From NCBI GenBank assembly GCA_965208835.1, contig OZ242358.1, positions 4,160,001 to 4,224,000 of the forward strand: a DNA stretch of 64,000 nt, written 5' to 3'. The stretch is from Candidatus Latescibacterota bacterium (GTDB lineage Bacteria; Latescibacterota; UBA2968; GCA-2709665). The notes beneath the pieces were generated by a model. It worked only from the letters and a program-made list of their open reading frames with translations, did no database searches and was not told where the DNA came from. Shown piece by piece: positions 15,838 through 55,975 of the stretch. The translations under genes and the position numbers were made by a program. The first letter of the stretch is position 1; each line of letters starts with the position of its first letter.

Positions 15838-16041
15838 AATTCGGTGAGAGGGGAGACGGTAGACGGGAGAAGAAATGCGGGTAGAGGTAAGACGGTAGAG
15901 GGTAGAGATTTCCTGCCTTGTGAAGCTTCTCTTCCTGCCGAAGGCAAGGAGGGATAAATTAGCCGGCGAGGATATCTTCTACCGTCTTACGTCTCCCGTC
16001 TACCCGGTTTTCTCCCCCTCTCCCGGCTTACGTCTTACCGC
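15838..16041. repeat. 77-bp dyad element with heptamer arms, copy A (core 15904-15980, reversed orientation)
   Basis: Core matches 11 other copies. Purine heptamers (GGTAGAC/GGGAGAC) on the left, pyrimidine heptamers (GTCTTAC/GTCTACC) on the right. Confidence 0.9.
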
Positions 16042-18045
16042 TTAGTGCCAGCTGTGTACCCTGTGACCCGAATGCGGGAACCAGATGGCGTCCACGACCG
16101 TGCCTGCGATCACCGCAATGATATATGCCGTCAGAATCCCGATGAAAAAGGGCAGCGAACGCCGGTAAAACGCCGTGCCGCCGATCCTGAGCATGAGGAA
16201 CTTGATCAGCCACGCGACCAGAAGCGTAAGGCTTTCCAGCCTGGCGAATATCGTACCCGAAAGTGCGAACCCTACCGGGTGCAGGCGCCACCTGGGCAGC
16301 CGGTACCGCATGACGTTCAGGGCAGTCATGATAACGACTCCCGCGAGAAACAGCCAGTATTCCACCGCCAGGATCGGCCGGGGGTTGCGCAACGCGTCCA
16401 CCGCCAGGCCGTAGTTCCATTCACCCTCGTGAAGAATCAGCCAGTTCGGCTGAAAATTGTACCCGCCCATGGTGTAGGCCAGCCAGACCGTATGGAGCGT
16501 CGAAACCACCGTACCGACCATGAACGCCCCGAAGATTCCCCAGAAAAAGCGCCGCTTGCCTTCGGGTATGAAGTCTCCCAGACGGTTCACCTGCGCGATC
16601 ATAGGCAACGCGAAACTCCTGGGGTGGTTGACCGTGAACGGCAGCAGGCTGGAGGCGGCGTTCGTCGACGGGTTCAGCCTGTGCGCACCGCCCAGCGCAA
16701 ACAGCGCATAGTCCCAGGCCACCGCAGGAGGATCGACGTACACCAGCCCCGAGTCGGCGACCACCTTCGCCACGCCCACGTACGCGATGAACATGGCCGG
16801 CGTCAGAACCAGGATCATTCCCGGTTCGATGCCTATCCGCGATAGCCAGGCCACAATGTAGACGATGCAGACGACCAGCCCGAGAACGGCCGTACGATAG
16901 GATATCCACTCCCTGCTGTCATCCAGGGCGGAACCACCGGGGCGGAATGCCTTCCGGAAGACCTCGCGCAGGTGCCCGCGGGAGATCCAGAGCCACCAGA
17001 CAACCAGCGCCGCGAAGGCGCCCGCCGTCTGGAACTTGTAGCTCGTGAGGTTGTACGGGCCGGAACCGTAGTGCGGGGACGTCGCCACCACGCCGAGTCG
17101 ATTCAGAAGGCCGGCTTCAATCATATAGAGGACGTCGAAGAACCAGATGCTGAAGAGTACTTCCAGGTTGGCGAAATAGGAAAAACAGATGACGAAGACG
17201 CTCAGATAGATGCAGAACGGGGGATACTGTTTGGGCAGGAGATCCCAGATATAGCTCATGCGGGTGTTCATCACCTTCGGAAAGGTGGGATAGAACCAGT
17301 GCACCATATTCAGCCAGAAGACCGCCGACGTGAGTCCGAATCCCGCCCAGAACGCCTTTCCCTTCATGAATTCCGGAAGGACGCGCGCCCCGGTCCCGCT
17401 CCGGTTCGCCATCTCCAGGACGGGCGTCAGCGCGGGATAGACCAGTTTTTCGTGGTCCGCCCACTGGCGATGCAGAATCACCGACACGCAGACACAGGCG
17501 AACCCCAGAACGGCGATAAAGACGAACCACCAGAGCAGCGGCCCCCACCAGTCGTGCCAGGGAATGGACATCCCGTTCGGGAGCCCTTCGAAGAACATGG
17601 TGATGGACCGTTGTTCGTCCGTCGAGATCAGCCAGCCGGGAAGGTGCGGGTGCAGAAACTCCGACCACCGGTTCTCGGGCGTGGCGAAGTAGTACGGAGC
17701 CACCATCTGGCTCACCAGATACCCGCTGATCCCATAGGTGGGGCCCATCGCGCTGATCAGGCCCATACCGAAAATCGTGATCCATTCCGCGGGCGCCAGC
17801 ACGAAACGGCCGCCGAACCACCGGGCAAGCGCCGCGAAGATCAGGATGGAAACCAGAAAGAGGAGAAGGTCGCCCATCGGGATCAGGCTGATGGCCATGT
17901 ACGACCCGTGCTGGACGTAACGCATCGTATTGGCGAGAAGATTGACGGCTACGGACAGCCCGAGCCCGAATATGACAGCGCGGGTCGTTACGCCCTGGCG
18001 CACGGGATGCTGTTTCCGCGTTTCCGCCGTGCTGGCGATGGCCAT
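16042..18045 (-). CDS. DUF6785/DUF6784-like polytopic membrane protein (putative transporter), copy 2
   Basis: 667 aa, full-length paralog of 9119-11098 with the same motifs. Confidence 0.8.
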   Translation of the reverse strand: MAIASTAETRKQHPVRQGVTTRAVIFGLGLSVAVNLLANTMRYVQHGSYMAISLIPMGDLLLFLVSILIFAALARWFGGRFVLAPAEWITIFGMGLISAMGPTYGISGYLVSQMVAPYYFATPENRWSEFLHPHLPGWLISTDEQRSITMFFEGLPNGMSIPWHDWWGPLLWWFVFIAVLGFACVCVSVILHRQWADHEKLVYPALTPVLEMANRSGTGARVLPEFMKGKAFWAGFGLTSAVFWLNMVHWFYPTFPKVMNTRMSYIWDLLPKQYPPFCIYLSVFVICFSYFANLEVLFSIWFFDVLYMIEAGLLNRLGVVATSPHYGSGPYNLTSYKFQTAGAFAALVVWWLWISRGHLREVFRKAFRPGGSALDDSREWISYRTAVLGLVVCIVYIVAWLSRIGIEPGMILVLTPAMFIAYVGVAKVVADSGLVYVDPPAVAWDYALFALGGAHRLNPSTNAASSLLPFTVNHPRSFALPMIAQVNRLGDFIPEGKRRFFWGIFGAFMVGTVVSTLHTVWLAYTMGGYNFQPNWLILHEGEWNYGLAVDALRNPRPILAVEYWLFLAGVVIMTALNVMRYRLPRWRLHPVGFALSGTIFARLESLTLLVAWLIKFLMLRIGGTAFYRRSLPFFIGILTAYIIAVIAGTVVDAIWFPHSGHRVHSWH

Positions 18046-18049
18046 GGGT

Positions 18050-19246
18050 CTACTCTCCGCGCAACCCCACGCCGCCCGGGTCCGCCGGAAGCTCGCCTTC
18101 CGCCCGGTCCCGGTTCGGGCGAAAGTCGGGAACCCGCATCAGCCGGCTTCCCTCCTCGATCGAGTCTATGGCCCGTACTGCCGCGGCAACCGTATCCATG
18201 GCCCGGTACACGTCGAATTCCAGCGGCTTCCCCTCGAGAACCGCGTCGCGAAAGTGCATGTGCACATAGGAATCCGCGTCGCCGTGGCCGCTGCCGCGCG
18301 CCTCAGGCGGCGCGTCGGTACGTTCGAATCCCCAATCCACCTCCGTCCAGTCGTTCATCTGCGCGTCCGCGAACCAGACTTTCGGCATCTCACGGCGTGA
18401 CCGCCGCCACTCCAGGCTGCCCTTTGTGCCAATCATCTGCCACCAGTGGTGGTCTCCGTGCGGGCGCGGCTGCGTGTGGCCGTCCAGCATGCGAATCAAT
18501 GTATCCTTTTCGGTCTTCATCAGCGCCACCTGTACATCCGGCTTTTGAATTTGAGGATGCGCATAGCTTGGTCTCTTCGTGCTCATCGCCGTCACTTCCG
18601 TCACCCGGTCGTCGAGGATCTTCAGCAGGATGCTCAGATCGTAGGAGGAAGCGATAATCGGCGGGGTATCGTGGGGAAACGTGGGTCTGGCCTCGGGATG
18701 GTCCGGCAACTCCTCTATCGCATATTGTTCCCCTGTACTGTAGTCCTGAAAGAACTGGTGCGTACCGTAATACCCCACGTACTGACCCTCGGCATAGGTG
18801 ATCCTGCCCAGGCGCCCATCGTCCACAAGGCGTTTCCACCCGTCCACGAACCCCCAGAACCGCGTCTGCTCCGCCAGGCTGTAGACCAGCCCGGTCCGTT
18901 CCACGTTCGTAACGATGCGCCAGCACTCCTCCATCCTGTACGCCCCCGGCACCTCGCTGTTCACGTGCATGCCCGCTTCCAGCGCTTCCGCCGCCATCCG
19001 CCCGACCTCACGCTGCCTCACCACGAGGCCCACCGCGTCCATTCCGCCGTATGAAAGGAAATCCCCGTAGTCGGCGAATGCCGCCACGTCGTCGCGATAC
19101 GAAATTTCGGCGAGGGCCCGTTCCTGAAGCGGTTCGATCCAGTCGTAGACGGCCGTAATGCGGAAGCCCGGGATACTCTGCAGCAGCCGGATCCAGTGAA
19201 GGCCGCGGTTGCCGAGTCCCGCGATCCCAATGCGAATTTCGTCCAT
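18050..19246 (-). CDS. Gfo/Idh/MocA oxidoreductase, GH109-like; close paralog of 12445-13665
   Basis: IGIAGLGNRG, HVNSEVPGA, GSGHGDADS. Long identical stretches with 12445-13665. Confidence 0.88.
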   Translation of the reverse strand: MDEIRIGIAGLGNRGLHWIRLLQSIPGFRITAVYDWIEPLQERALAEISYRDDVAAFADYGDFLSYGGMDAVGLVVRQREVGRMAAEALEAGMHVNSEVPGAYRMEECWRIVTNVERTGLVYSLAEQTRFWGFVDGWKRLVDDGRLGRITYAEGQYVGYYGTHQFFQDYSTGEQYAIEELPDHPEARPTFPHDTPPIIASSYDLSILLKILDDRVTEVTAMSTKRPSYAHPQIQKPDVQVALMKTEKDTLIRMLDGHTQPRPHGDHHWWQMIGTKGSLEWRRSRREMPKVWFADAQMNDWTEVDWGFERTDAPPEARGSGHGDADSYVHMHFRDAVLEGKPLEFDVYRAMDTVAAAVRAIDSIEEGSRLMRVPDFRPNRDRAEGELPADPGGVGLRGE

Positions 19247-19276
19247 GCACGCCCCTCCGGTATTGATGTGCAGACT

Positions 19277-19987
19277 TCAGTCGAGTTGAAAACGAATGTA
19301 GATGAACATCCGCACTTCAACGGCCTCCTGGTTCTGGTACCCGGGGAGATACCGGAAACCCGAGAGGGCGTCCAGCGATGCACGGTGAAACAACTCGTGC
19401 CCCTTGAGGACAACGCTGTCTTTGACCCGGCCGTCCCTTCCAACGGTAAATTCCATCAGGACGACGCCCTCCAGGCCGGCCTGCCGCGCTTCGTCCGGGT
19501 ACGCAGGTTCCACCTGTTCGAGGAGCCGCGGCTTCCGTTCCACAAGGCGGGCGGGGAGGACGACTTCGCCATCCACCTCCTCGTCCGTGCCGGGTGCCGA
19601 AAAGAGCGTATCCGACGGCACTGAGAGACGTATGGACACCGCGTCGAATTCGAGTTCGGCGGTCGCGTCAACGGATATCTCCTCGGGCAGCAGGTCGCGG
19701 CTATCCGTTTCGAGGGGCACGGTCGGCCGTACCGGAATCGGCAGCTTTATGCCCTGTCTGGTCTCCGGCACCTCTGTTAACTGGATGAGAATCGGATGTC
19801 TTGCGGAAGTTTGGGTGCGGAGCCTGAAGGACGGGAAAGTGAACGCAACGGCCGCGTGCAGGGCGAGCGAGATCCCGATGCACAGGGGGAAGACCTTCCG
19901 GTACTGCGCCTTCAAGTCCGCTTCGGGACGCCTGGTCCGGATTATTTTTCCGGTAATCCAGGGTCTGGGAGGCAGCCGTTGTGGCAT
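19277..19987 (-). CDS. tonB: Energy transducer TonB
   Basis: N-terminal TM with SLALH. C-terminal PAYPDEARQAGLEGVVLMEFTVGRDGRV...IRFQL. Confidence 0.88.
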   Translation of the reverse strand: MPQRLPPRPWITGKIIRTRRPEADLKAQYRKVFPLCIGISLALHAAVAFTFPSFRLRTQTSARHPILIQLTEVPETRQGIKLPIPVRPTVPLETDSRDLLPEEISVDATAELEFDAVSIRLSVPSDTLFSAPGTDEEVDGEVVLPARLVERKPRLLEQVEPAYPDEARQAGLEGVVLMEFTVGRDGRVKDSVVLKGHELFHRASLDALSGFRYLPGYQNQEAVEVRMFIYIRFQLD

Positions 19988-20093
19988 CGTACACTCCACG
20001 CTGCCTGCAAGGCCGGCGTGCATGGGATCAACACGCGTTCATGGCGCGCGGCGACCATCCGTCAACGATAGGAGACCATTCCGAAAAACCGGC

Positions 20094-20969
20094 TCAAACG
20101 GCATCGGGCGCGCGTCCCAATGCCCGCGCCATCGCCCTGATCGTGTTCGGGCCCGCCCCGCAGCATGCGCCGATGAGATTGATCCCCTCCGCCTTCGCCT
20201 TTACCGCGAAGCCGGCCATCACGTCCAGGGATACACGCGTATCCTTTCCGCCCGGTCCGAATCCGTTAGGCTGCCAGGCAACGGGCACATCCACCGCATG
20301 ACGCATCTCGGTGACGAGATTCAACATCCCCTCTGGCGTCCCGTTGCATACCAGACCCACCACATCGGCCCCCTCTCCCGCGAGAACGCGGGCGCACTCG
20401 CCAGCCGTGGCGCCGTCCTCCGTCGTCCGGCTTATCCCCATGAATACCATGGTCGGAACGCTCGTTTTCTTGCAGCACTCGAGGCAGACAAGCACCTCGT
20501 CGAGGCGATGAAACGTCTCCGGAATGAGGAAATCCGCACCGGCGTCCACCAGAACGGCGATCTGTTCGTTCCATTCCGCCTTCGCCCGGTCCCTGGAAGA
20601 GGGGTCTTCCGGATCGAATATCGGATCGCCCTCCCACGACCCGGTCCGCGTGGAGACCAGGCATCCGCCCACCGGCGCCGTCCCGGAAGACGCTTCTTTC
20701 GCAAGCTGCACGCCAATCCGGTTCACTTCGTCCAGCCGGCCGCCCCATCCGAAATGACGATCCAGCTGGGATCGCGACGTAAACCAGGTCACCGCTTCGA
20801 GTACCTGTGAACCGGCGTTCAGGAAATCCCGATGGATCTGCCGGATGGCGTCTGGATGTTCCAAAATCGCCGCCGGCGTGTCGTATCCGCGCCACCTGGC
20901 TTCCAGAATCATGCCGCCGTCGCACAAGACGACGTCCTCGCCGAACATTTTCATCACGTCTTCCGCCAT
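20094..20969 (-). CDS. Homocysteine S-methyltransferase family protein, paralog 3
   Basis: CDGGMILEARWRGY, PETF, GLVC, LIGACCGAGP. Confidence 0.9.
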   Translation of the reverse strand: MAEDVMKMFGEDVVLCDGGMILEARWRGYDTPAAILEHPDAIRQIHRDFLNAGSQVLEAVTWFTSRSQLDRHFGWGGRLDEVNRIGVQLAKEASSGTAPVGGCLVSTRTGSWEGDPIFDPEDPSSRDRAKAEWNEQIAVLVDAGADFLIPETFHRLDEVLVCLECCKKTSVPTMVFMGISRTTEDGATAGECARVLAGEGADVVGLVCNGTPEGMLNLVTEMRHAVDVPVAWQPNGFGPGGKDTRVSLDVMAGFAVKAKAEGINLIGACCGAGPNTIRAMARALGRAPDAV

Positions 20970-21025
20970 CTCGCCGTCTTCCTACGTTGTGTCCTGTCAT
21001 TCGGTTACTTCGGACGTTTTTTTAT

Positions 21026-23800
21026 TTACTGCGTTGCTTCCCTGACCCAGAAGCGGCCTTCCTTGGTTGCCCGCTGCCCGCTGTTCATGTCCTTTACGGT
21101 CATCCTGACCCTGCGGCGCCCGGCGGCGGTCTCTCCGATGTCCAGCGCCACGTAGTCTGAGACCGACGCCTCGGTTCCGGTCTGTTCGTAGCGTACGGTC
21201 ACCGCCGATTCCGACCGCCCCAGAACTCTTGTCGAGAGTCGCGAGAGGCTGGTGCCGCTCTCGTCGGTGCTGTAGACCTCATAAACCACCTCGTAGCGCG
21301 TCGCCCCGAATTCGTCCGGCGTGAGATTGTAGATTTCGAAGAAGACGAACACGTGCTGCCCCGCGTCGAAAACATGCGAGGGCAGCGGCGTGACGTTCCA
21401 TTTGCCGCGGACGAACTTCGGGTCGGACCCGGGCATCACGGCCGTCACCTGCCGCGCCACGAACAGATCGCTCAGCTTCAGATCCTCTCCGGAGTAATCT
21501 TCCACGGAGAGCTTCTGCGAATACGCCTGCAGCCGTTTCGTGTTGTGCCGCTGCACCTGCAGTGCCAGTTCGTAGTCCCCCGGCAGCACATCCAGGAGAT
21601 CCACCCGATCCAGAAGCGCCCTGTCGCGCCGCCGCCCCGAAACCGGCACCTCCAGGTCCTGCTGCAGCGCCAGCACCTTCGTGTACCGGACGTCCATCAG
21701 CGCGACGCGCCGATTCACCATCACGTCGTCTTCCGAATCCCCGGGCAGTGCGACGTGCTCAATGGGGATGCCCACGTTGACCTGGATCTCCGTTCCGCCG
21801 TTTTTTCCCCGGAAAGTGACCACGTCGTAGCTGAAATCGAGCGCCTCGAAACCCGACACGCTGTAGTACTCCGGCTCTTCCCGCGACACGGACGCAACAC
21901 GGGTTGAAGGCGCCAGTTCCGTCAGCCGCTGCATGAGCCGCACATAGGCCATCTGTCCCACGTGGGGGTCTTCATCCAGGTTCTTGAGATCCTGGCTGCT
22001 TACGCCGGGGACCGGCGCATAGTCGTATACGCCGGAGTTCTGTTCATCCGTGAAGGCGACTTCCAGCCCCTTTCCCACGCCCGCATAGACCCAGACCTCC
22101 CAGGGCACCGACGCCCAGTTGTGCCCCGTCGTTACCGGCTTCCATCCGCTCAGCCCGATCGCGAATTCGGGGTCCAGGTCGATTCCGGCCTCTATGGGAG
22201 AGTCTTCGAGATCGATCAGTTGCTGCGGTGACGCGGCGGGATTGCCCTCGGCGCCCGGTTCGGCCTGATCGGGCGCAAACACGGCCAGATCGAGCTCCTC
22301 GATTACAGCAGCCTGCAGGTCGCGCCGAATGTCCTCGCTGGGCTCCAGAAAGGAACCCAGATCGGTTCGGATGGGAAAGACAGGCCCCACGAAGCTGATG
22401 CCCAGCCCCTGCGCGCCGTACAGCTGGTAGGCGATATTGTCCTGTACGCGTTCGACCGCCGGAGGCACCTTCGGATTCGGCTGGATCGAGGAGGAGCGGT
22501 AGTCCGGCGCGCCGTAGCGGATATAAACCTCGCCGCGTCGGTCCCAGGGCCACTTCAACGTTCCATACTTCGTTCGGGCGTACCAGACCCGCCGGTGGTG
22601 CTCGGCGCGACGCATGGCGCCACGGGAGGCTTTGAACGGGTCGTGACGGAGCCAGAACCGCTGCAGGAACGCCGCACGCTTCTCCGGAGGGGTGGCGCGC
22701 CAGGCTTCGATCTCATGAGGCAGCCCGACCAGCGACACGTCCCGGTAAAGCGCCTGCTCTTCGGGGTCCAGGCTTTCGATATAGATCTTGAACGCACGAA
22801 GCGCTCCCTCGAAGTCGCCCCGCGCCATCAGCGCCTGCGCCAGCAGCGGCAGCGCGAGGTCGTTGGTCATCAGTGTGGTAAGGGTCTCGACTTCCTCGAA
22901 TTTCTCTTCTTCCAGCAACTCATTGGCAAATGCCAGCGCCGCCGCCTGGTCCGCCGGCTTCAGTTCCAGGTATTTTTCGAAGTAGACCATCGCGCCATGA
23001 AGGTTGCCCTCCTCGCGGTGCAATTCAGCCAGCAGCAGGTGGGCGGGCGCGATCCGTGAGTCGAACTCGAGCGCCCGGTCCGCAGCCTGCCTTACACCGG
23101 GGCGCCCGGTTTCCTGGTAGGCCCTGGCAAGCAGATAGTGCGATTCGGCATGGGTCGAATCGGCGCCAATTGCGGCTTCCAGATGCGTCAGCGCCCGTGC
23201 CGGGTCTGCCTCATGTTCGAGCGCCAGCCTCCCCAGTCCGGAATGCGCATCAGTCAGATTCGGATTGAATTCAATTGCGCGAACGAATGCAGAGCGCGCA
23301 CTGTCCACGGCGCCGACCGTCAGACGCCGGCGCCCGACCTGGGCAAGAGCCCGCGCCAGGTACGTGTGCGTCCAGGTATACGTGGAATCGGCCCTCAACG
23401 CCGCTTCCAGATGCGGCAGCGCGCCCGCCGCGTCCCCTTCGAGTTCGAGAGCCACCCTTCCCAGCCCGCAGTGCGCCGTGGCCAGCGCGGGATCGAATCC
23501 CACAGCGCGCTCAAATGCCGACCGCGCGTCGCGAGCCCTTCCCACCCGCAGATACAGCATGCCCACCCGGTTCAGGACGAGTCCGGCATGGTCGGGATGA
23601 TCGTCGACCGATCGCGCCAACATTTTTGCCGCCGCAACGACCGTCGGAACGTCGCCGGCTTTCAAGCCGCGTGCGTAAACGGCATCCAGCTCCGACAACG
23701 TCATTCCGGCAGCCGGCGCGTGATCCGGCCAGAAACCGGCGGCGGCGATCAGCACGCCAACCGGCAGTGCGCGCATACGCGACCACCGAGGACGTTCCAT
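21026..23800 (-). CDS. GWxTD-domain protein with N-terminal TPR repeats
   Basis: Signal peptide and TPRs, then FLQRFWLRHDP...EHHRRVWYA...WDRRGEVYIRYGAPD, WEVWVY, and a C-terminal beta domain. Confidence 0.85.
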   Translation of the reverse strand: MERPRWSRMRALPVGVLIAAAGFWPDHAPAAGMTLSELDAVYARGLKAGDVPTVVAAAKMLARSVDDHPDHAGLVLNRVGMLYLRVGRARDARSAFERAVGFDPALATAHCGLGRVALELEGDAAGALPHLEAALRADSTYTWTHTYLARALAQVGRRRLTVGAVDSARSAFVRAIEFNPNLTDAHSGLGRLALEHEADPARALTHLEAAIGADSTHAESHYLLARAYQETGRPGVRQAADRALEFDSRIAPAHLLLAELHREEGNLHGAMVYFEKYLELKPADQAAALAFANELLEEEKFEEVETLTTLMTNDLALPLLAQALMARGDFEGALRAFKIYIESLDPEEQALYRDVSLVGLPHEIEAWRATPPEKRAAFLQRFWLRHDPFKASRGAMRRAEHHRRVWYARTKYGTLKWPWDRRGEVYIRYGAPDYRSSSIQPNPKVPPAVERVQDNIAYQLYGAQGLGISFVGPVFPIRTDLGSFLEPSEDIRRDLQAAVIEELDLAVFAPDQAEPGAEGNPAASPQQLIDLEDSPIEAGIDLDPEFAIGLSGWKPVTTGHNWASVPWEVWVYAGVGKGLEVAFTDEQNSGVYDYAPVPGVSSQDLKNLDEDPHVGQMAYVRLMQRLTELAPSTRVASVSREEPEYYSVSGFEALDFSYDVVTFRGKNGGTEIQVNVGIPIEHVALPGDSEDDVMVNRRVALMDVRYTKVLALQQDLEVPVSGRRRDRALLDRVDLLDVLPGDYELALQVQRHNTKRLQAYSQKLSVEDYSGEDLKLSDLFVARQVTAVMPGSDPKFVRGKWNVTPLPSHVFDAGQHVFVFFEIYNLTPDEFGATRYEVVYEVYSTDESGTSLSRLSTRVLGRSESAVTVRYEQTGTEASVSDYVALDIGETAAGRRRVRMTVKDMNSGQRATKEGRFWVREATQ

Positions 23801-23820
23801 CTGCCGACATCTCCCGCATA

Positions 23821-23860
23821 AACAGATAGGCGGCCCTCTCGCTTTCAGAAGCCGCCTATC
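23821..23860 (-). terminator. Intrinsic terminator/hairpin after the PorV-like gene
   Basis: Perfect 10-bp stem GATAGGCGGC/GCCGCCTATC (23825-23834/23851-23860), followed by TGTTTAT on the minus strand. Confidence 0.6.
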
Positions 23861-23889
23861 GGGTTCACTTCAGTTGCGCTTCCCCGCGA

Positions 23890-24864: not shown

Positions 24865-24874
24865 GGCGACCTCC

Positions 24875-36575: not shown

Positions 36576-36810
36576 AATTGGCCACAAAGAGCCTGAATGC
36601 GGGTAGACGCAGACCAAAAGCGGTGAGACGTAAGCCGGGAGAGGTTAGAGATGTCCTGCCTCGTGAGGATTCTTTTCGTGCCGAAGGCAGCGAGGAATTA
36701 AATATCGGGCGAGGATACCATCTACCGTCTACCCTCTCACCTCTACCCGCCTTTCTTCTACCGTCTTACGTCTCCCGCCTACCCGGTTTTCTCCCCGTCT
36801 ACCGGCTCCC
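36576..36810. repeat. 77-bp dyad element with heptamer arms, copy B (core 36647-36723, reversed orientation)
   Basis: Core matches the family. Left flank AATTGGCCACAAAnAGCCTGARTGCGGGTAGACG is shared with copy J. Confidence 0.9.
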
Positions 36811-37058
36811 CTCTTACCAGGTTGCGGGCCGGGGTGTGGAGATCGGGAATAGGGTTTGAAACCCGAATAAACGCGACGTATATTGGAACGGCAACTTCAT
36901 GCGTTTCAATTTGTTCCCGGCATCCCCGGCACGACGCCGAAAAGTAGGTCCGGGTACCCTCGGATGCAAGCACAATCATGGCCTCCTAACGCTGCTGACG
37001 CCCCGGGGAACGACGTGACTGGGTTCACACAACGAACCGACACTGAAAGGATCGTCTC

Positions 37059-46081: not shown

Positions 46082-46147
46082 ATAACACGCTCGAAGCCGG
46101 ACTCTCGTTAACGGTTAAACAGAAATGGTTCACGAAAGAGCGCGCGA

Positions 46148-46284
46148 AAAAGCGGGGAGACGGTAGAGGTGAGACGGGAGAAGAAGCCCTTGCCGATTTG
46201 TTCCTCCGACTTGCCTGCGGCATGAGAAGAAACCCTTTGCGGCATACGATCTCTCCCCTCTCACGGCTTACGTCTTCCCGCTTT
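46148..46284. repeat. Dyad element with heptamer arms, copy C (76-bp core 46179-46254, most diverged)
   Basis: Core alignable to the family. Right arm ends on the TAA stop of the adjacent gene. Confidence 0.85.
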
Positions 46285-47551
46285 AAGGAAACTGCGGAAC
46301 CGTTACCCGTTCCCCTCGCGCGGCGGCAAGCTCGCCGCAGATCGCGGGAGCGCACGAACGCGCGGCCTGGACCGCGTCGATGAGCGGGCGGCGGTCGCGG
46401 ACGATGGCGTCGAAGAAGTCCAGCATCATATCGAATTCCGCCCCCTGGTGTCCGGGTCCGGATCCCGTTATCAGGGGCAGTTCCATCCATCCATCGCCCG
46501 ATTCCACGGTATTCAGAAACCGGTGGGGAAGGTGAACGTATCCGGAACCGACCTCGTTGCGCCGTTCGCCTTCGTAACATCCCAGCGTTCCGTAAAGCGC
46601 GAGATAGTTCAGGTGAGGGCGGCGGAATCCGTAGCTCTGCAGCGCTTTGACGATCACGCCGCTCTCGCTCTTCATCAGCGCCGCCGCGCTGTCGAAGCCG
46701 TCGCCGGTATTCGCGCCGAAACCCTCCTCCGGGCTGCCTTCGACGAAGCTCGTACCGCGCATCCCGAATGCTTCCACTTCCACAATCTGCTCGTCACCCA
46801 GCAGCCAGCGCGACGTGTCGAACGTGGTATGCACGGCCGCGTTCAGCGGCGGCTCGATGCCCCCTTCACACCCCCGGTCGGCCGGCATCCCCACCTCGCG
46901 CTCACGGTCCACCCAGTACCGCTTCCTCCGCCGGTAGTCGCAGTTGTACTCCGCCTCCACGTACTGCACCTTGCCAAACTCCCCCTCCACGCACAGCTTC
47001 TTCAGGGCTTCGTACCGGTTATACCACCGCAACTGGTTGCCCATCTGCACCTTGAGTCCGGTTGCCTCGCTCAGATCCACGATGGCCCTGCATTCCTCCA
47101 GGGTGACGGCAAGGGGCATTTCCACGAAGACGTGCTTGCCCGCCTGCAACGCCTGGATTGCATGCTCCCCGTGCCGGTCCGTGCCCGTCTCCACCACGAC
47201 CACGCGGACCTCGTCGTCCTTCAGCATGTCTTCGTACCGCCGGTACGATCTGGGGACGTCCAACTCGCCGGCGACGTATTCCGCCAGGTCCGGGACCTCG
47301 TCGCATACAGCCACGGTCCGACTCCGGTCCAGGAGGTTGCACAATCCCGCCATGAACCGGCCCCGTCCCAGGCCGACCACCCCCACGTTCAAGACACGGG
47401 CGCCCCGGTCGGGACCGGCAACCCGCATGGGCGGCCTCTCCTGGCGCGCCATCCATTCCAGGTATCGCTCCATCCTGGCCTGTCTCGCCTTTTCCGAATA
47501 CCAGTCTCGAGACAGGTACCTTTCAAGAATGTCGCGTCTGTTCGGGTCCAT
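46283..47551 (-). CDS. Gfo/Idh/MocA oxidoreductase (GH109-like) with ~50 aa N-terminal extension
   Basis: VGVVGLGRG, HVFVEMPLA, EAEY, GPGHQGAEF. Confidence 0.88.
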   Translation of the reverse strand: MDPNRRDILERYLSRDWYSEKARQARMERYLEWMARQERPPMRVAGPDRGARVLNVGVVGLGRGRFMAGLCNLLDRSRTVAVCDEVPDLAEYVAGELDVPRSYRRYEDMLKDDEVRVVVVETGTDRHGEHAIQALQAGKHVFVEMPLAVTLEECRAIVDLSEATGLKVQMGNQLRWYNRYEALKKLCVEGEFGKVQYVEAEYNCDYRRRKRYWVDREREVGMPADRGCEGGIEPPLNAAVHTTFDTSRWLLGDEQIVEVEAFGMRGTSFVEGSPEEGFGANTGDGFDSAAALMKSESGVIVKALQSYGFRRPHLNYLALYGTLGCYEGERRNEVGSGYVHLPHRFLNTVESGDGWMELPLITGSGPGHQGAEFDMMLDFFDAIVRDRRPLIDAVQAARSCAPAICGELAAARGERVTVPQFP

Positions 47552-47579
47552 AATTGACTCCGGTGGTCACACGAATTCA

Positions 47580-47777
47580 GTTGGGGCGACCGGCCGGTCG
47601 CCTGAATGCGGTGAGACGTTAGAAGGAAGACGGTAGATGAAATCCTTGCCAAATGAGATATCCCTCCTTGCCTCCGGCAGGAGAAGAAACCTGACAAGGC
47701 AGGCAATCTCTCCCGTCTCCCGGCTCACGTCTACCCGCTTTTGGCTTCTTCCTTCTTCCTTTTTCCTTCTTCCTTTT
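47580..47777. repeat. REP-like hairpin, 77-bp dyad element copy D (core 47635-47711) and CTTCCTT tract
   Basis: GGGGCGACCGGCCGGTCGCC palindrome, then arms and core, then a pyrimidine heptamer tract at 47745-47777. Confidence 0.9.
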
Positions 47778-48906: not shown

Positions 48907-48960
48907 CCCAACTTTCCCCCGTAGGCACGTGGACGACGCGCGCTCGCGTGATGGATGGTA

Positions 48961-50088: not shown

Positions 50089-50104
50089 GGGATCCTCCCG
50101 AGAA

Positions 50105-51019
50105 CTACCCGGCTCGCACCGGCTTCCCCAGCGCCTCGGCCATCGCACGGATGTGGGATGGTCCCGCGCCGCAGCAGCACCCCACGAAGTTGATCCCTTC
50201 CGCCCTCGCCTTCAGCGCGAACGCCGCCATCTCGTCGGGCGTGACGCCATTGCTGTGACGGTGGACGGCGTAGCCGACGTCTTCGGTATCCGTCATTTGC
50301 CTGAATCCCTTCGGCTGGCAGGCGATCGGCACGTCCACCGCTTCCCGCATCTCGAGCGCCGTCGGCAGCATCTGGTCCGGATCCCCGATACAGACGGTCC
50401 CCACGATATCCGCTCCGTCGTCCGCGAGGACGCGGGCGCATTCCGCCGCACTGGCGCCGTCCTGCGTCTGTGTGTCGCTTCCGATGCCCACAAGCGCCAT
50501 CGTCGGCAGGCCGGTCTTCTTGCAGCTTTCCACGCACAGCCGCATCTCGTCCAGACGGAAAAACGTCTCCGGGATCAGGAAGTCCGCACCGGCGTCGACG
50601 AGAATCGCGATCTGCTCTTCCCATTCGGCCTGCGCGCGTGCGCCCGACGAAGGATCCTCCGGATTGTAAACCCGGTCTCCCAGCCGGGAGCCGGTCATCG
50701 TGGAGACGAGACATCCGCCCACCGGCGCCTCCCAACCGGACGCCTCTTTCGCCGCGCGAATCCCGGTCCGGTTGATTTCGTCAACGCGGCCTCCCCATCC
50801 GTATTTCTCCTCCAGCTGAGCGCCCGAGGTAAACCACGTCAGCGCCTGGAGCACCTCCGATCCTGAATTATAAAAGTCCCGATGGATCTGCTGAAGCGCT
50901 TCCGGATGGGAGCCGATGATGCCGGGGACATCGTAACCTCTCCAGTTCGCCTCCAGGTACATCCCGCCGTCACCCAGAACGATCCCTTCATTGAGCATTT
51001 CCATAAGATTCCCGGCCAT
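50105..51019 (-). CDS. Homocysteine S-methyltransferase family protein, paralog 4
   Basis: GDGGMYLEANWRGY, LQALTW, PETF, GTVC, FVGCCCGAGPSHI. Confidence 0.9.
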   Translation of the reverse strand: MAGNLMEMLNEGIVLGDGGMYLEANWRGYDVPGIIGSHPEALQQIHRDFYNSGSEVLQALTWFTSGAQLEEKYGWGGRVDEINRTGIRAAKEASGWEAPVGGCLVSTMTGSRLGDRVYNPEDPSSGARAQAEWEEQIAILVDAGADFLIPETFFRLDEMRLCVESCKKTGLPTMALVGIGSDTQTQDGASAAECARVLADDGADIVGTVCIGDPDQMLPTALEMREAVDVPIACQPKGFRQMTDTEDVGYAVHRHSNGVTPDEMAAFALKARAEGINFVGCCCGAGPSHIRAMAEALGKPVRAG

Positions 51020-51059
51020 ATCTCAATTCTCCTATCGACAGTGATTAAATCGCCCCGCC

Positions 51060-51662
51060 CCCACACGTCCACCCCCCTCGACGTGGGGAGAGGGTAGAGG
51101 TGAGACGGGAGAAGATATCCATGCCAGGTATGTTATTCCTCCCCGCCTCCGGCACGAGAAGAATCCTCACAAGGCAGGTGATCTCTACCCTCTTACGTCT
51201 TACGTCTACCCGCCTTTACAGTAGTTGAATTCCCCCACACCCAGACGTCCCCATTCCCTTGATGTGGGTAGAGGTGAGAGGGTAGACGGGAGAAGAAATC
51301 CTCGCCCGGTATGTCATTCCACCTTGCCTTCGGCTCGAAAAGAATCCTCACAAGGCAGGCAATCTCTCCCGGCTAACGTCTTCCTTCTCACCAGGTGGTG
51401 GGCTGGGGTGTGGTCCTCTACCCTCTTCCGGCTTACGTCTTCCCGCTCTTACTGCAGTTGACTTCCCCCACACTCAGACGTCCCCTATTCCCCTGATGTG
51501 GTGAGAGGTGAGAAAATCGGGTAGACGGAAGACGTTAGACGGTAGATGAAATCCTTGCCAGATGAGATATTCCTCCCAGCCTTTGGCACGAGAAGAAACC
51601 TCACGGGGCAGGCAATCTCTCCCGGCTTACGTCTCACGTCTTACCGCCTTTACAGTAGTTAA
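51060..51662. repeat. Tandem array of three 77-bp dyad elements with arms (cores E 51110-51186, F 51291-51367, G 51544-51620)
   Basis: Three alignable cores. Units end in TTACAGTAGTT or TTACTGCAGTT and begin with CCCCACAC...GAYGTGG. Confidence 0.92.
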
Positions 51663-51679
51663 TGAGGTCCTCCCGAGAT

Positions 51680-52594
51680 TTACCCGGTTCGCACCGGCTT
51701 CCCCAGCGCCTCGGCCATCGCACGGATGTGGGATGGTCCCGCGCCGCAGCAGCACCCCACGAAGTTGATCCCTTCCGCCATCGCCTTCAGCGCGAACGCC
51801 GCCATCTCGTCCGGCGTGACGCCGTTGCGGTGACGGCGGACGGCATAGCTGACGCCTTCGGTATCCGCCGCTTGCCTGAATCCCTTGGGCTGGCAGGCGA
51901 CCGGCACGTCCACCGCTTCCCGCATCTCAAGCGCCGTCGGCAGCATCTGGTCCGGGTCCCCGATGCAGACGGTCCCCACGATATCCGCGCCGTCGTCCAC
52001 GAGAGTGCGGGCGCATTCCGCCGCATTGGCGCCGTCCCGTGTCTGCTTGTTGCTTCCGATGCCCACAAGCACCATCGTCGGCAGGCCGGTCTTCTTGCAG
52101 CTTTCCACGCACAGCCGCATCTCGTCCAGACGGGAAAACGTCTCCGGAATCAGAAAGTCGGCGCCCGCGTCCACCAGAATCGCGATCTGCTCTTCCCATT
52201 CGGCCTGCGCGCGGACGCGCGACGAAGGATCCTCCGGATTGTAACCCTTGTCTCCCAACCGGGAGCCCTTCATCGTGGTGACGAGACAGCCGCCGACCGG
52301 CGCCTCCCAGCCGGACGCCTCTTTCGCCGCGCGAATCCCGGTCCGGTTGATTTCGTCCACGCGGCCTCCCCATCCATATTTCTCCTCCAGTTGTGCCCCC
52401 GAGGTAAACCATGTCAGCGCCTGGAGCACTTCCGAACCCGAATTGTAAAAGTCCCGATGGATCTGCTGAAGCGCATCCGGGTGGGAGCCGATGATGCCGG
52501 GTACATCGTAACCTCTCCAGTTCGCCTCCAGGAACATCCCGCCGTCACCCAGAACGATCCCCTCCTTGAGCATTTCCATAAGATTCCCGGCCAT
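51680..52594 (-). CDS. Homocysteine S-methyltransferase family protein, paralog 5 (tandem duplicate of paralog 4)
   Basis: 304 aa; about 26 substitutions versus 50105-51019 by manual count. Confidence 0.9.
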   Translation of the reverse strand: MAGNLMEMLKEGIVLGDGGMFLEANWRGYDVPGIIGSHPDALQQIHRDFYNSGSEVLQALTWFTSGAQLEEKYGWGGRVDEINRTGIRAAKEASGWEAPVGGCLVTTMKGSRLGDKGYNPEDPSSRVRAQAEWEEQIAILVDAGADFLIPETFSRLDEMRLCVESCKKTGLPTMVLVGIGSNKQTRDGANAAECARTLVDDGADIVGTVCIGDPDQMLPTALEMREAVDVPVACQPKGFRQAADTEGVSYAVRRHRNGVTPDEMAAFALKAMAEGINFVGCCCGAGPSHIRAMAEALGKPVRTG

Positions 52595-52634
52595 ATCTCA
52601 ATTCTCCTATCGACAATGATTAAATCGCCCCGCC

Positions 52635-53013
52635 CCACACGTCCACCCCCCTCGATGTGGGGAGAGGGTAGAGGTGAGAGAATCGGGTAGACGGAAGACG
52701 TAAGACGGTAGATGAAATCCTTGCCAGATGAGAAATTCCTCCTTGCCTTTGGCACGTGAAGAATCGTCACGAGGCAGGCAATCTCTCCCCTCTAACGTCT
52801 TCCTTCTCACCAGGTGGTGGGGCGGGGTGTGGTCCTCTTCCGTCTTCCCGATTTTACAGTAGTTGAATTCCCCTGATGTGGGTAGAGGTGAGAGGGTAGA
52901 CGGGAGAAGAAATCCTCGCCTCGTATGTTTTCCCTCCTTGCCTCCGGCACGTGAAGAATCGTCACGAGGCAGGCAATCTCTCCCGGCTAACGTCTCCCCT
53001 CTCACCGCCTTTA
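52635..53013. repeat. Two tandem 77-bp dyad elements with arms (cores H 52710-52786, I 52905-52981)
   Basis: Alignable cores. Right end overlaps the stop codon of paralog 6. Confidence 0.92.
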
Positions 53014-53946
53014 CAGTAGTTGATACGGACCCGGCTGATCCGGCATCGACGTCGGTTTTCCGATCGCCTCCGCCATCGCCCGGATGTGATACGGCAGGGC
53101 ACCGCAACATGCGCCGATGAGACCGACGCCCATATCCCAGGCATCCCTCGCGTAGTCGGCCATCTCACGCCGGGGCTGGTGGCGGAGCTCGAAATGCACG
53201 CTGGATCCCGAGGCGATCTCCCGGGTATACTCCGCGCCGTTCTCCAGCACGTACGCCAGGGGTTGGGCGCAGACGGGTACGGACACGGCGTCCATCATCT
53301 TCCGCATGATATCCCGGTACAGGTGCCACGGCCGCCCGCAATTCACGCCCACGACGTCGGCGCCCGCGTCCACGAGCCGTTTCGCGACTTCATCCGGAAG
53401 ATGCCGGTCGGCGGTATACTCCCCCGACTTATAGGTGAACGCCACCACGGCTGGCACGCCTGCGGCTTTAATGGGGGCTAAGCCCAACAACGCCTCTTCC
53501 ACCGAGTAGAAGGTCTCCACGATGAACAGGTCCACGCCAGCCGCCGTCTGCTGTCCCACCCGCCGCTCGAAGAACGCCTGCGCCTCGCTCTTTTCCTGCG
53601 CGGAAAGGGGTGACCGCCTCCGGTACGATCCGATTCCGGAGGGGCTGAGCGTACCCGCCACGAACCGGTCCGGGCCGGCGGCCTCGCGTGCAAGCTCGAC
53701 CGCGGTGCGGTGCAGCTCTTCATCCCGTTCCATCCTGCCCACGCCCCAGGTCATGGCCTGCAGCACCTCGGCGCCCGCGAGCGCGAATTCCCTGTGCAAT
53801 TGGAGCAGGCCCTCAGGGTGGTCCAATACGGCCCAGGGTACGCCTTTGGCGAAACTCCCCAGGCACCGCCGTTCAAGCTCCAGAAAGTAGCCACCGTCGC
53901 AAAGTACCGGTCCGTCCTTAAGGCGATCCATAAATCCCGATGCCAT
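53011..53946 (-). CDS. Homocysteine S-methyltransferase family protein, paralog 6 (most BHMT-like)
   Basis: CDGGYFLELERR, LHREFALAGAEVLQAMT, VETF, GVNC, LIGACCGALPYHIRAMAEAIG. GGAGG RBS. Confidence 0.92.
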   Translation of the reverse strand: MASGFMDRLKDGPVLCDGGYFLELERRCLGSFAKGVPWAVLDHPEGLLQLHREFALAGAEVLQAMTWGVGRMERDEELHRTAVELAREAAGPDRFVAGTLSPSGIGSYRRRSPLSAQEKSEAQAFFERRVGQQTAAGVDLFIVETFYSVEEALLGLAPIKAAGVPAVVAFTYKSGEYTADRHLPDEVAKRLVDAGADVVGVNCGRPWHLYRDIMRKMMDAVSVPVCAQPLAYVLENGAEYTREIASGSSVHFELRHQPRREMADYARDAWDMGVGLIGACCGALPYHIRAMAEAIGKPTSMPDQPGPYQLL

Positions 53947-53998
53947 GGTAATACCTCCTGCTGGTCTTTAGCCTTAATCGGAATAAAGATAACGGATG

Positions 53999-54155
53999 AA
54001 TTGGCCACAAATAGCCTGAGTGCGGGTAGACGGTAGAGGTAAGACGGGAGAGGAAACCCTTGCCCGATCCTTTTTTCCTCTTTGCCTTAGGCACGATAAG
54101 AATCTCCACGCGGCAGGCAATCTCTCCCCTCTACCGTCTTGCGTCTCCCCGACTT
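53999..54155. repeat. 77-bp dyad element with heptamer arms, copy J (core 54049-54125)
   Basis: Core alignable to the family; left flank shared with copy B. Confidence 0.88.
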
Positions 54156-54204
54156 CTATCAGCACGTCTATTTTCATAACTTACTGCGTCAGAAGGCGAA
54201 CTGA

Positions 54205-55407
54205 CTAAACTGGATAATTGCCAGCCTTCCTTTTTTCCGAGGGCCTGAAATCCGGAACCTCCAGACACGCGTTCCCCTGCTCCACGGACTGCACGGCCAC
54301 AATGGCCGGCGCCGTCAGATCCGCCGACCGGTACACGTTCAGCGGCGGGTCCGAATCGTCCAGGATGGCGTCCAGAAACGAGGAAAGCGCGAAGTAGTCC
54401 ATATTTCCGTGCCCGCTGCCCCGGGCCTCCTCGGGAAGGTCTTCCGGAGAATATTTCCATTCCGCCTCACGCATCGATTCCTCTCCGGCGCTCTCCAGCC
54501 AGATCTTCGGCGTGTCCACGCCGCCGGCGCTGCCGTATATCTCCGCGGAGCGGGCGGTCTCCACCTTTCCCCTGGTCCCTTCCAGGTGCCACCAGTGATG
54601 GTCCCTGGGCGTCGCATACGTAAACCCGGCCGCCATCCGGACGATCGTATCCTTTTCCGTTTGCATCAGCGCCAACTGGATATCCGACGCCGGGATGCCT
54701 TCGTAATAATAACTTTCCGGACGCGTCGTCATGCAGGTCACCCGCGTCACCCGGTCCTGCAGCACCGTCAGGATGGGGCCCAGGTCGGTGGCCATGTACA
54801 GAATCGGATGGGGAAACCAGTTCCACATTCTGCTCTTCGCGGCCCTCGGATGATTCGACGCGTCGTCCAGATGGATGCGTTCGCCCGTTGCTGAATCGAC
54901 CCAGAACCGGTCCGGCGTCATCCAGTGAAGATACTGCCCCTGGGCGAAGATGACGTGGCCGAGTTCGCCCTCCACGACCAGTTTCCGCCAGGCTCTTACA
55001 AACGGGTGGTACATCACCTGCTCGGCCATCTGAAACTTCAGCCCGCTGCGCTCCACGGCCACCACCACCCGCCATAAGTCATCCATATCATACGTCAGCG
55101 ACACTTCGCAGGACGCGTGTTTCCCCGCCTCCATCGCCCGGCAGATCAGGTCCGGCTGATCGTGCGGCGCCGTTACGATCGCCACCGCGTCGATGTCCGC
55201 CTTAGCCAGCATCTCGCCATAGTCGGTAAAACACGCGATATCCGGATCGCCGGCTTCGCGGTACGCCTGCCCGACAAGCGCCTCCACCCTGTCGCAGAGC
55301 GCCGTCACACGGCAGGACTTGATCCGCCGCAGGTTCTTCATCCACGACAGCCTGCCCCGCGGCCCCAACCCCACGATCCCGATCTTTACCTGCTTCTGTT
55401 TGGGCAT
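54205..55407 (-). CDS. Gfo/Idh/MocA oxidoreductase, GH109-like
   Basis: IGIVGLGPRG, HASCEVSL, GQYLH, ILYMATDLGPI, GSGHGNMDY. Confidence 0.88.
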   Translation of the reverse strand: MPKQKQVKIGIVGLGPRGRLSWMKNLRRIKSCRVTALCDRVEALVGQAYREAGDPDIACFTDYGEMLAKADIDAVAIVTAPHDQPDLICRAMEAGKHASCEVSLTYDMDDLWRVVVAVERSGLKFQMAEQVMYHPFVRAWRKLVVEGELGHVIFAQGQYLHWMTPDRFWVDSATGERIHLDDASNHPRAAKSRMWNWFPHPILYMATDLGPILTVLQDRVTRVTCMTTRPESYYYEGIPASDIQLALMQTEKDTIVRMAAGFTYATPRDHHWWHLEGTRGKVETARSAEIYGSAGGVDTPKIWLESAGEESMREAEWKYSPEDLPEEARGSGHGNMDYFALSSFLDAILDDSDPPLNVYRSADLTAPAIVAVQSVEQGNACLEVPDFRPSEKRKAGNYPV

Positions 55408-55456
55408 AAGATGCTTCTTTCAAAGGTTACAATACTGAAGATGAGGCGTTGCTATT

Positions 55457-55975
55457 GTAGGGGCGACCGGCCGGTCGCCTAAATGCGGTGAGACGTGAGA
55501 GGGTAGACGGTAGAAGAAATCTTCGCCCGATATGATATTCCTCCTTGCCTCCGGCACGAGACGAAGCCCGACAAGGCAGGTTATCTCTCACCTCTCCCGG
55601 CATACGTCTTCCCGCTTCTAAGACCTTTCCCCTAACCCCCTTCCTGAAGGAAGGGAGAACCGGGGCTCCACGGCGTCTTGTCCAAGAGAAAAAACGGAGA
55701 TGACGTTCTCCCCTCAATCAAAGTGTCTACAGATGACCGGCAAGGCGACTTAGTGCTTTGCACCCCCTTTCCTTTAGGAGAGGGGGCCGGGGGGAGAGGT
55801 CGCCTAAATACGGTGAGAAGTGAGAGGGAAGACGCGAGAAGAAATCTTCGCCGGATATAATATTCCTCCTTGCCTCCGGCACGAGAAGAAACCTCACAAG
55901 GCGGGTGATCTCTCCCCTCTCCCGGCTTACGTCTACCCGCTCTTTGCTGACTGCTGAGAGCTGATGGCTGACAGC
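55457..55975. repeat. Composite repeat block: GTAG REP-like hairpin, dyad cores K (55512-55588) and L (55837-55913), CCCCT...AGGGG inverted repeat, GCTGANN tract
   Basis: GTAGGGGCGACCGGCCGGTCGCC at 55457. GACCTTTCCCCTAACCCCCTTCC (55622) pairs imperfectly with GGAGAGGGGGCCGGGGGGAGAGGTC (55777-55801). Heptamers at 55946-55975. Confidence 0.88.

Follow-up and report, generated by a model that had tools for sequence, protein, structure and literature searches.

A genus-specific family of heptamer-armed intergenic palindromes in a Candidatus Latescibacterota bacterium

In a 64,000-nt stretch of the genome of a Candidatus Latescibacterota bacterium (contig OZ242358.1 of assembly GCA_965208835.1, positions 4,160,001 to 4,224,000, forward strand; hereafter the window), twelve copies of a hairpin-forming repeat with a 77-nt core lie between protein-coding genes. 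Here, we report that this repeat belongs to a family that is undescribed, genus-specific and non-coding. The initial annotation had read it as an undescribed, non-autonomous recombining repeat that shuffles single genes as cassettes; the first part of this interpretation stands, whereas the cassettes are contradicted by a conserved gene order, by the mixed orientation of the copies and by the lack of an integrase. The family is very probably a dispersed, copied and recombining non-coding repeat and not a cassette system. [quoted passage not shown] We assign this reading a probability of about 0.6.

Abundance, placement and taxonomic range of the family

A profile built from the twelve window cores was run with nhmmer against the 5.18-Mb single-contig genome (E <= 0.001) and returned 184 copies. 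The initial annotation, which had proposed such a scan, held that hundreds of copies strewn at random through intergenic DNA, unconnected with gene gain or loss, would mark an ordinary dispersed repeat, and this is largely what was found. Specifically, 167 of the 184 copies lie outside the open reading frame (ORF) calls, and of the 170 spacers (or ORF calls) that contain the element, 158 have only one copy. The intergenic copies comprise 118 between co-directional genes (68 in the orientation of the genes and 50 opposite to it), 32 between divergent and 17 between convergent genes, against a background of 2623 co-directional, 448 divergent and 448 convergent spacers. Relative to the 3' end of the adjacent gene, 85 copies have the same and 67 the opposite orientation (p = 0.17), which is no significant bias, and the ratios on the two replichores are 41:59 and 40:44. 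The copies lie nearer to stop codons (median distance 55 nt) than to start codons (119.5 nt), with ends at most 10 nt from a stop in 23/152 cases and from a start in 6/182. They are also clustered, 41 of 183 neighbour distances being below 2 kb where 12.5 were expected. Along the chromosome, they are concentrated in 0-2 Mb and 4-5.18 Mb, where the cumulative GC skew is flat and noisy, and are rare in 2-4 Mb, where the skew and the gene-strand bias are clean. The skew itself is clean from about 1.2 to 4.2 Mb, with the terminus near 2.64 Mb; over the 40% of the chromosome nearest to the origin, in which the elements concentrate, it is flat and noisy.

With one window copy (52683..52815) as the query, the family was found in all 14 same-genus genomes searched and in none of seven genomes from other genera of the same family. 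Two of 19 genomes of the sister family matched, in the arm part only, with long tandem arrays lacking a core; the core was thus not found outside the genus in these 7 and 19 genomes. The exact-pattern matches listed came from metagenome-assembled genomes of Candidatus Latescibacterota, some of them labelled Gemmatimonadota or uncultured, and the one Spiribacter match among the matches listed was taken as chance. Viral contigs, plasmids and phages gave no match to the element. In Rfam, the window had no match at the gathering score, and the only match at E <= 1 (51000-53100) was to cobalamin, at 17.1 bits against a gathering score of 31.5 (E = 0.14). This sub-threshold riboswitch match, at 51590-51774 on the minus strand, lies across one element and the terminal part of an S-methyltransferase gene and is probably due to chance. 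The literature searched, with article supplements outside its scope, held no account of the family or of repeats in Latescibacterota. Together with the Rfam result, this agrees with the earlier claim that the element is undescribed.

Turnover of copies at a conserved gene order

In the cassette view, each copy is a site of recombination in folded single-strand form, comparable to an integron attC site or the target of an HUH nuclease, and the copies bracket single genes and shuffle or amplify them. The window offers some ground for this: ten copies of the same orientation do lie within 46-56 kb, and they bracket the single genes starting at 46283, 51680, 53011 and 54205. However, the genes of 44-58 kb are collinear in four relatives (G011, G006, G009 and G002), despite 8, 4, 1 and 5 cores there, respectively, compared with ten in the same region of the window. 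The corresponding spacers in relatives are filled by other repeat families, several of them palindromic.

Differences at single sites bear out the earlier suggestion that the copies recombine with one another, by tandem expansion, by core exchange and by the formation of a hybrid. Where the window has three copies (51.1-51.6 kb), G011 and G006 have one, and the extra two stem from tandem duplication of a copy together with its spacer, with no gene involved. The copy with its core at 47635 is kept at the orthologous site in G011 and G009, and is present in G006 with the core subtype of the copy at 46179. In G002, the GFO_IDH_MocA gene at 46283-47551, which these two copies flank in the window, is missing, and a single in-register hybrid copy stands at that place. 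Its left flank, left arm and core are those of the 46179 copy, while its right arm (3/4 diagnostic letters) and right flank are those of the 47635 copy. Judged by its sequence, this hybrid is the trace left by recombination between a pair of direct repeats.

The absence of a gene at a hybrid of its flanking copies is what a cassette might leave behind, as is the patchy occurrence of that gene, which is accessory: it is present at the locus in 8 and absent in 6 of the 15 genus genomes (own included), with its flanks on two contigs in G004. Its patchiness is nevertheless independent of the element. Three genomes (G008, G012 and G014) carry the gene with a spacer of 26-57 bp and no copy on the 47.6-kb side, and three others (G001, G003 and G007) have neither gene nor copy, but a clean spacer of 50-70 bp. 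Overall, the turnover of the element explains why spacers in the genus change while the genes stay put.

Recent copying and empty sites

The mobility proposed in the initial annotation is supported, at least in the sense of copying, by near-identical copies at unrelated loci and by empty sites in relatives. Within the set of 128 full-length copies, identity over 141 nt is 93% or more in 29 pairs, most of which have flanks that are about 25% alike. The identical block stops within the outer arms, and copies that share an inner block can differ in their outer modules. Three copies, at 22.7, 429.8 and 804.3 kb, are 97-98% alike; the donor-like 804-kb copy among them is common to G009, G011 and G002, and orthologous empty sites, for which the initial annotation had proposed a comparison of relatives, were found for the other two.

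At 429.8 kb, our genome has about 285 bp, compared with 43-80 bp in G011, G006, G005 and G002, and the gain replaced the last codons of the upstream gene and the spacer. At this locus (L167, about 1450-1460), the upstream gene lost its last two codons and its stop; it has a new five-residue tail and a stop from a heptamer. The 22.7-kb copy is missing from G002 (26-bp spacer), from G005 (69 bp) and from G011, which has a different palindromic repeat instead. A solo arm beside the start of the downstream gene is present there in all four aligned genomes and forms the outer boundary of the copy. No target duplication was found at either of the two gain sites that were aligned to empty sites, which is a small sample, and none was seen by eye in 90 flanks. 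The element thus varies in presence between close relatives, and has terminal inverted repeats without coding capacity (the mirror-symmetric ends of a 135-nt unit).

Because of the features of the gain sites and the places where the identical blocks end, we infer that copying may be guided by homology between arms. The family would spread by gene conversion or template switching, and not by cut-and-paste with target duplication. The heptamer arrays would then act as landing pads, so that cores, and in other cassettes the PF05635 gene described below, would move between arrays. Spread by such arm-guided copying, without a transposase, is a tentative proposal whose odds we put below even.

Architecture of the repeat unit

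All twelve cores of the window start where the initial annotation had placed them (coordinates are given with each copy below); eleven are of 77 nt and one, at 46179, is of 76 nt, and their alignment needs a single one-base gap. A repeat finder recovered the core-plus-right-arm stretch ten times and the left arm eleven times at these places. Ten copies have the orientation in which the element was first described, and the other two (cores at 15904 and 36647) the reverse one. Each of the four trinucleotide boxes (columns 14-16, 36-38, 42-44 and 64-66) is present in 12/12 window copies, as had been claimed, and all four are intact in 107/128 full-length copies of the genome. The C(GNA)G triloop occurs in 9/12 window copies and in 99/128 full-length copies, and its last loop letter is as claimed in 12/12 and 123/128, respectively.

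The core is nearly fixed in length, being 77 nt in 128 of the 184 copies, 76 nt in 36, 78 nt in 8, 75 nt in 8 and truncated in 4. The conserved unit is longer than the 77 nt first assigned to it. When the 128 full-length copies were stacked, the information profile showed sharp limits of conservation, at about -30 and +106 with respect to the core, with mirror-image ends, and the unit is therefore about 135 nt long. The mirrored heptamer arms of the earlier description are real, as the genome has 433 arm arrays of at least three units (247 of three, 177 of four, 8 of five and 1 of seven) compared with 6 in the reversed-sequence control. Most of these arrays (363/433) are at most 40 nt from a core, and 145 of 147 convergent neighbouring arm pairs enclose one. 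Tandem arrays of period 7 number 155, whereas periods 6 and 8 give 19 and 38, respectively, and the unit carries no regular G-triplet.

A short run of T flanks the outermost stem on either side. Roughly one copy in four bears a further arm tier outside the first, along with one of at least two alternative linkers, and the right ends of the 128 copies divide into 59 of one type, 31 of another and 38 of other forms. Palindromic units joined with alternative linker motifs are a feature of BIMEs. Each unit can be folded as one long imperfect hairpin, as had been predicted, and 14 examples folded as RNA gave -41 to -69 kcal/mol. The unit may thus be described as three to four degenerate heptamers, a length-fixed 77-nt core whose four boxes are two helical turns apart, and the inverse heptamers; the extra outer tiers and linker modules on some copies make the family a BIME-like mosaic.

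Conservation of letters without compensatory change

The copies are divergent (mean pairwise core identity 0.774), and conservation is distributed unevenly among their columns: 51 of 141 reach 95% conservation or more and 49 stay under 80%, several being invariant in 128/128 copies beside almost random ones. We examined pairing in an alignment of 88 copies from several genomes (the 12 of the window and 76 of 80 loci from relatives). In this alignment, 80.8% of the cells were paired, compared with 46-54% when the partner was slid by 1-3 columns. However, compensatory change was not found in these 88 copies, as pairing reached 81.5 +- 0.3% when the 3' letters were shuffled within columns (497 of 500 shuffles were equal to or above the observed value). 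The covariation score was 0.078, compared with 0.084 +- 0.004 for the shuffles, and RNAalifold gave a covariation term of -0.02 at an energy of -4.27 kcal/mol. The 128 full-length copies of the genome itself, with the 56 copies of other lengths excluded, gave the same picture over 50 pairs (0.812 versus 0.823 +- 0.002 for shuffles), and RNAalifold found almost no consensus structure in them. The top pairs in mutual information over all column pairs reflect the right-end subfamilies and not base pairs, and at the variable positions of the heptamers, either arm changes independently of the other.

Since pairing is no higher than in the shuffles, the symmetry resides in the conserved letters. The hairpin is upheld by conserved mirror-image letters without compensatory change, which points to sequence recognition over selection for folding. 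A protein would recognise the invariant letters as sequence, whether in double-stranded DNA, in folded DNA or in RNA, and they would not be kept for their base pairs. Folded as RNA, the reverse strand is slightly more stable (mean -56.2 versus -52.8 kcal/mol), and it is the more stable one in 89/128 copies.

The rate of change was compared in seven pairs of orthologous copies (six of the window with G011 and one with G002; four further listed pairs were excluded to limit double counting). Differences in conserved, middle and variable columns numbered 17, 23 and 65, compared with 38.0, 30.5 and 36.5 expected (chi-square p = 1.7e-8). Per site, this amounts to 0.048 in conserved and 0.19 in variable columns, compared with 0.111 (139/1255) at four-fold degenerate sites of neighbouring genes. 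A reading of the core as coding sequence was dropped without a formal test, because the start codon found in some copies is not conserved and copies occur in both orientations.

Search for a cognate enzyme

An HUH/RAYT nuclease or an integron integrase had been suggested as the partner of the element, and the genome has neither. The Y1 transposase of the RAYT (REP-associated tyrosine transposase) type (PF01797) had no match in the genome, which is 97.8% complete, while the control search was positive in 6 of 14 named genomes. The integron integrase model (TIGR02249) reached at best 90.5 bits against a cut-off of 265, with matches in two frames of ordinary tyrosine-recombinase length. Self-comparison of the genome revealed few long repeats; an insertion sequence with matching ends was not found by this self-comparison, which is not a full transposase survey. 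The sole multi-copy insertion sequence checked is of the IS3 type (transposase helix-turn-helix and integrase-core domains), has two full and two partial copies, and has ends unrelated to the element. A tyrosine recombinase at 4.952 Mb adjoins copies of the element, but was given no weight as a partner because the whole surrounding region is rich in copies (33 in 250 kb).

PF05635 genes between period-7 arrays

The genome has four genes of PF05635, the protein family of 23S rRNA intervening sequences, at 4.933, 5.107, 0.607 and 1.520 Mb. The first two lie between arms of the element's type and the other two between arrays of other heptamers. In both the 4.933-Mb and the 5.107-Mb cassette, the left end aligns with the left end of the element over about 49 nt, mostly arm, while the right end is unaligned. 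In the genus, 31 PF05635 matches were found in 13 of 15 genomes. We compared 29 loci (leaving out one duplicate-adjacent locus and one match without a locus), which include orthologues and are not independent, with 3000 random 315-nt intervals of our own genome under a looser period-7 criterion. Arrays within 300 nt on both sides were present at 23/29 PF05635 loci and 2/3000 random intervals, and arrays on at least one side at 27/29 and 117/3000, respectively; a 77-nt core lay within 500 nt in 7/29 and 149/3000. The difference between loci and random intervals is large. Under a strict lag-7 criterion (17 of 21), arrays on both sides were detected at only one of the four PF05635 genes of our genome, as this criterion misses arrays because the heptamers are degenerate. 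The enclosing arrays belong to several different heptamer types (own genome; loci L184-L209). No arm array was found in either copy of a 2.6-kb near-identical repeat, presumed to be part of the rRNA operon, and one element lies a few kb from one of these copies.

These data raise a wider idea, which we consider doubtful. The 77-nt-core elements could be ORF-less members of a larger mobile class of heptamer-armed hairpins, whose ORF-bearing members carry the four-helix-bundle protein PF05635 ('S23p'). IVSs, the heptamer pairs of Xanthomonas and cyanobacteria and the present repeats would then be one phenomenon, with PF05635 as a mobility or maintenance factor and the heptamer arrays as sites of cargo exchange.

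Copies and neighbouring genes in the window

The two copies on the minus strand are both two-tier copies. The copy at 15841..16041 has outer arms, inner arms and a 77-nt core (15904-15980), and its outer arm ends on the stop of the minus-strand ORF 16042-18045; the copy at 36611..36818 has its core at 36647-36723. All others are on the plus strand. The copy at 46152..46283, with the 76-nt core (46179-46254), is the left parent of the G002 hybrid, and its right arm adjoins the stop codon of the GFO_IDH_MocA gene 46283-47551; the right parent is the copy at 47608..47740 (core 47635-47711). A later spacer holds three copies. The first, at 51083..51215 (core 51110-51186), is the only one of the three common to G011 and G006; the second, at 51264..51396 (core 51291-51367), belongs to the local tandem expansion of copy and spacer and is absent in these two genomes; and the third lies at 51517..51649 (core 51544-51620). 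Between the last two, a right-arm array without a core (51416..51450, plus strand) is an outer-tier or a solo arm.

Further on, the copy at 52683..52815 (core 52710-52786) is the best-scoring one of the window and was the query with which relatives were searched. The copy at 52878..53010 (core 52905-52981) runs with its right end into the stop of the S-methyltransferase gene 53011-53946. This is one of three cases, seen already in the initial annotation, in which the outer arm ends of copies (cores at 15904, 46179 and 52905) abut the stops of minus-strand ORFs ending at 16042, 46283 and 53011. The copy at 54022..54154 (core 54049-54125) is preceded by a further repeated module, and the four aligned relatives have unrelated sequence in this spacer. 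The last two copies are at 55485..55617 (core 55512-55588) and 55810..55942 (core 55837-55913), the latter being followed by an array of a different heptamer family at about 55944-55990. This second heptamer family often directly adjoins the right end of the element (window 55944-55990; spacers L133, L136 and L164 of G009, G006 and G014).

The genes of 44-56 kb are all on the minus strand and encode an FG-GAP/ASPIC protein, two GFO_IDH_MocA oxidoreductases, an M14 peptidase, a transglutaminase-like protein and three PF02574 S-methyltransferases. The repeat-rich stretch is adjoined by a HEPN-domain gene (56194-56595) and by a gene with Schlafen-AlbA_2, HATPase_c_4 and Fic-like_C domains (57263-58906); at the matching edge of the syntenic region, G009, G006 and G002 have a PF05635-like gene. 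Elsewhere in the window, a 12-nt tandem repeat at 58512-58669 forms two short runs of seven copies in total, paralogous gene clusters in 9100-21000 recur at 6923 and 5581 bp spacing with 66-82% DNA identity, and S-methyltransferase-like segments are repeated at 14, 15, 20, 50, 52 and 53 kb.

Alternative explanations

An RNA-level role for the hairpin, kept for its service as an RNase III target as in IVSs, as a two-way terminator or as an mRNA stabiliser, is unlikely in our judgement. The proximity of copies to stop codons, the T runs outside the outermost stem and the greater stability of the reverse strand as RNA would all suit it, and in the available part of an article on the Coxiella IVS, a terminal stem that is cut by RNase III and a varying number of tandem heptamers are described (PMC4990558). 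However, the 50 pairs show no compensatory change, and the copies show no preference for spacers between convergent genes (17 of 448, compared with 32 of 448 divergent ones). A consensus terminator scan of 46-56.2 kb, by a scanner blind to stems of 60 pairs, found 9 sites where 7.8 were expected, and none was a whole element.

Less likely again is a host architectural site, at which a multimeric DNA-binding protein reads the four boxes (22-bp spacing) and the heptamers (three of which make 21 bp) on double-stranded DNA. Host proteins are known to bind BIMEs, namely IHF, gyrase and Pol I, of which IHF and gyrase read them on double-stranded DNA. The alternation of invariant with freely varying letters, the lack of pair covariation, the fixed length, the symmetry with a two-turn period, and the slower change of conserved columns than of four-fold sites between orthologues are what such a site would lead one to expect. 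Against this, the binding protein is so far only hypothetical, and conversion among copies could mimic selection in place. Moreover, G009 keeps one core where the window has ten, around the same genes, and individual sites are therefore dispensable.

It is improbable that the family is a classical MITE, that is, an insertion sequence reduced by deletion and mobilised in trans by the transposase of the parent element, which reads the terminal inverted repeats. The terminal-inverted-repeat structure with its sharp ends, the many intergenic copies, the insertion polymorphism and the near-identical copies at unrelated loci do resemble one. Neither gain site, though, has a target duplication, and one gain replaced about 50 bp of native sequence. 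Recently copied blocks end raggedly within the arms and not at a fixed terminus, the only multi-copy insertion sequence checked (IS3-type) has unrelated ends, and no match came from viral contigs, plasmids or phages.

The cassette view is the least tenable, since the bracketing of four genes, the missing gene at the G002 hybrid, the patchiness of that gene and the stable reverse-strand triloop conserved in 99/128 copies are outweighed by the unchanged gene order, the decoupling of gene and copy in six genomes, the mostly solitary copies, their mixed orientation (85:67), the gene-free tandem duplication at 51.3-51.6 kb and the lack of a Y1 transposase or integron integrase above cut-off, so that we hold it to be highly improbable.

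The explanation that we favour, a mosaic palindrome spread by arm-guided copying, also has points against it. The basis for the copying mechanism is thin, as it consists of two gain sites and the ends of identical blocks, and at one of these sites (429.8 kb) one boundary shows only microhomology to the arm and no resident array. An unrecognised transposase that makes no target duplication would leave similar traces. The slow conserved and fast variable columns would fit in-place selection or conversion from other copies alike. The stability of the reverse strand (89/128) and the conserved loop letters are a hint of some function as single strand or as RNA, which the model can do without. Finally, the relatives compared are kin and not independent samples, and the gene calls come from a rough in-house ORF caller.

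Comparison with known repeat systems

The REPs and BIMEs of enterobacteria and the REPINs (hairpin-forming REP doublets) of Pseudomonas are short, non-coding imperfect palindromes that number in the hundreds between genes, often near stop codons; they form mosaics with linkers, are lineage-specific and serve as recombination substrates. The present family is like them in being made of intergenic, stop-proximal imperfect palindromes, in its linker mosaics, in its restriction to one lineage and in its recombination. It differs in its length (about 135 nt versus 20-40 nt), in the tandem heptamers round a fixed 77-nt core and in the lack of a RAYT (PF01797) in the genome. A REP or REPIN is defined by a palindrome of 20-40 nt with a conserved 5' tetranucleotide, whereas here the letters matching that tetranucleotide lie among variable heptamer columns.

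Bacterial MITEs such as Correia/NEMIS and ERIC are non-coding elements of 100-300 nt with terminal inverted repeats and insertion polymorphism, which occasionally provide a stop codon to a neighbouring gene. The family shares all of these traits, including the size class and the stop codon lent to a neighbour. In contrast to MITEs, it has no target duplication at its two gain sites and no parent insertion sequence that could be found, and its copies are old and divergent, yet keep their invariant columns.

IVSs are inserted in helix 25 or 45 of 23S rRNA and are cut out by RNase III. The IVS of Coxiella burnetii, in the available part of PMC4990558, has a stem of terminal inverted repeats that is cut by RNase III and a variable number of tandem heptamers before the S23p ORF, and an old idea that the ORF of IVSs served mobility is cited there. 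Similar to this, our element has a long terminal-inverted-repeat stem with heptamers, and the genus has PF05635 genes between period-7 arrays, two of which share the arm type of the element. The difference is that the 12 window copies lie between protein genes and not in rRNA, and that the copies with a 77-nt core contain no S23p/PF05635 ORF. In Xanthomonas, about 185 heptamer arrays per genome were reported, most of four units, with 70-75 convergent pairs (Rehm et al. 2015, PMC4692102, as far as the available part of the article goes). The G-rich heptamer pairs of Xanthomonas and Nostoc in that source resemble the present family in having mostly 3-4 units, in their over-representation in intergenic DNA, in their frequent convergent pairs with stem-loop potential and in numbering about 180 sites per genome. 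Here, however, the heptamer is another one without regular G-triplets, and 145 of 147 convergent pairs enclose a conserved 77-nt core, of which the available part of PMC4692102 describes none. As for integron attC sites, they likewise are imperfect palindromes of similar length, and the copies of 46-56 kb lie downstream of single genes in one orientation; the present copies differ from them in lacking an integron integrase, in being dispersed in both orientations and in bracketing genes that are syntenic in relatives.

Significance

Overall, the element behaves as a selfish or half-domesticated repeat and not as a gene-cassette boundary. Taken alone, a lineage-specific intergenic repeat family in an uncultured sponge-associated bacterium is of modest value. 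For genome annotation, it calls for caution, since stop codons and short tails of proteins can come from the arms. Beyond this, the link to PF05635 provides a testable handle on the origin and movement of rRNA intervening sequences and of bacterial heptamer repeats.

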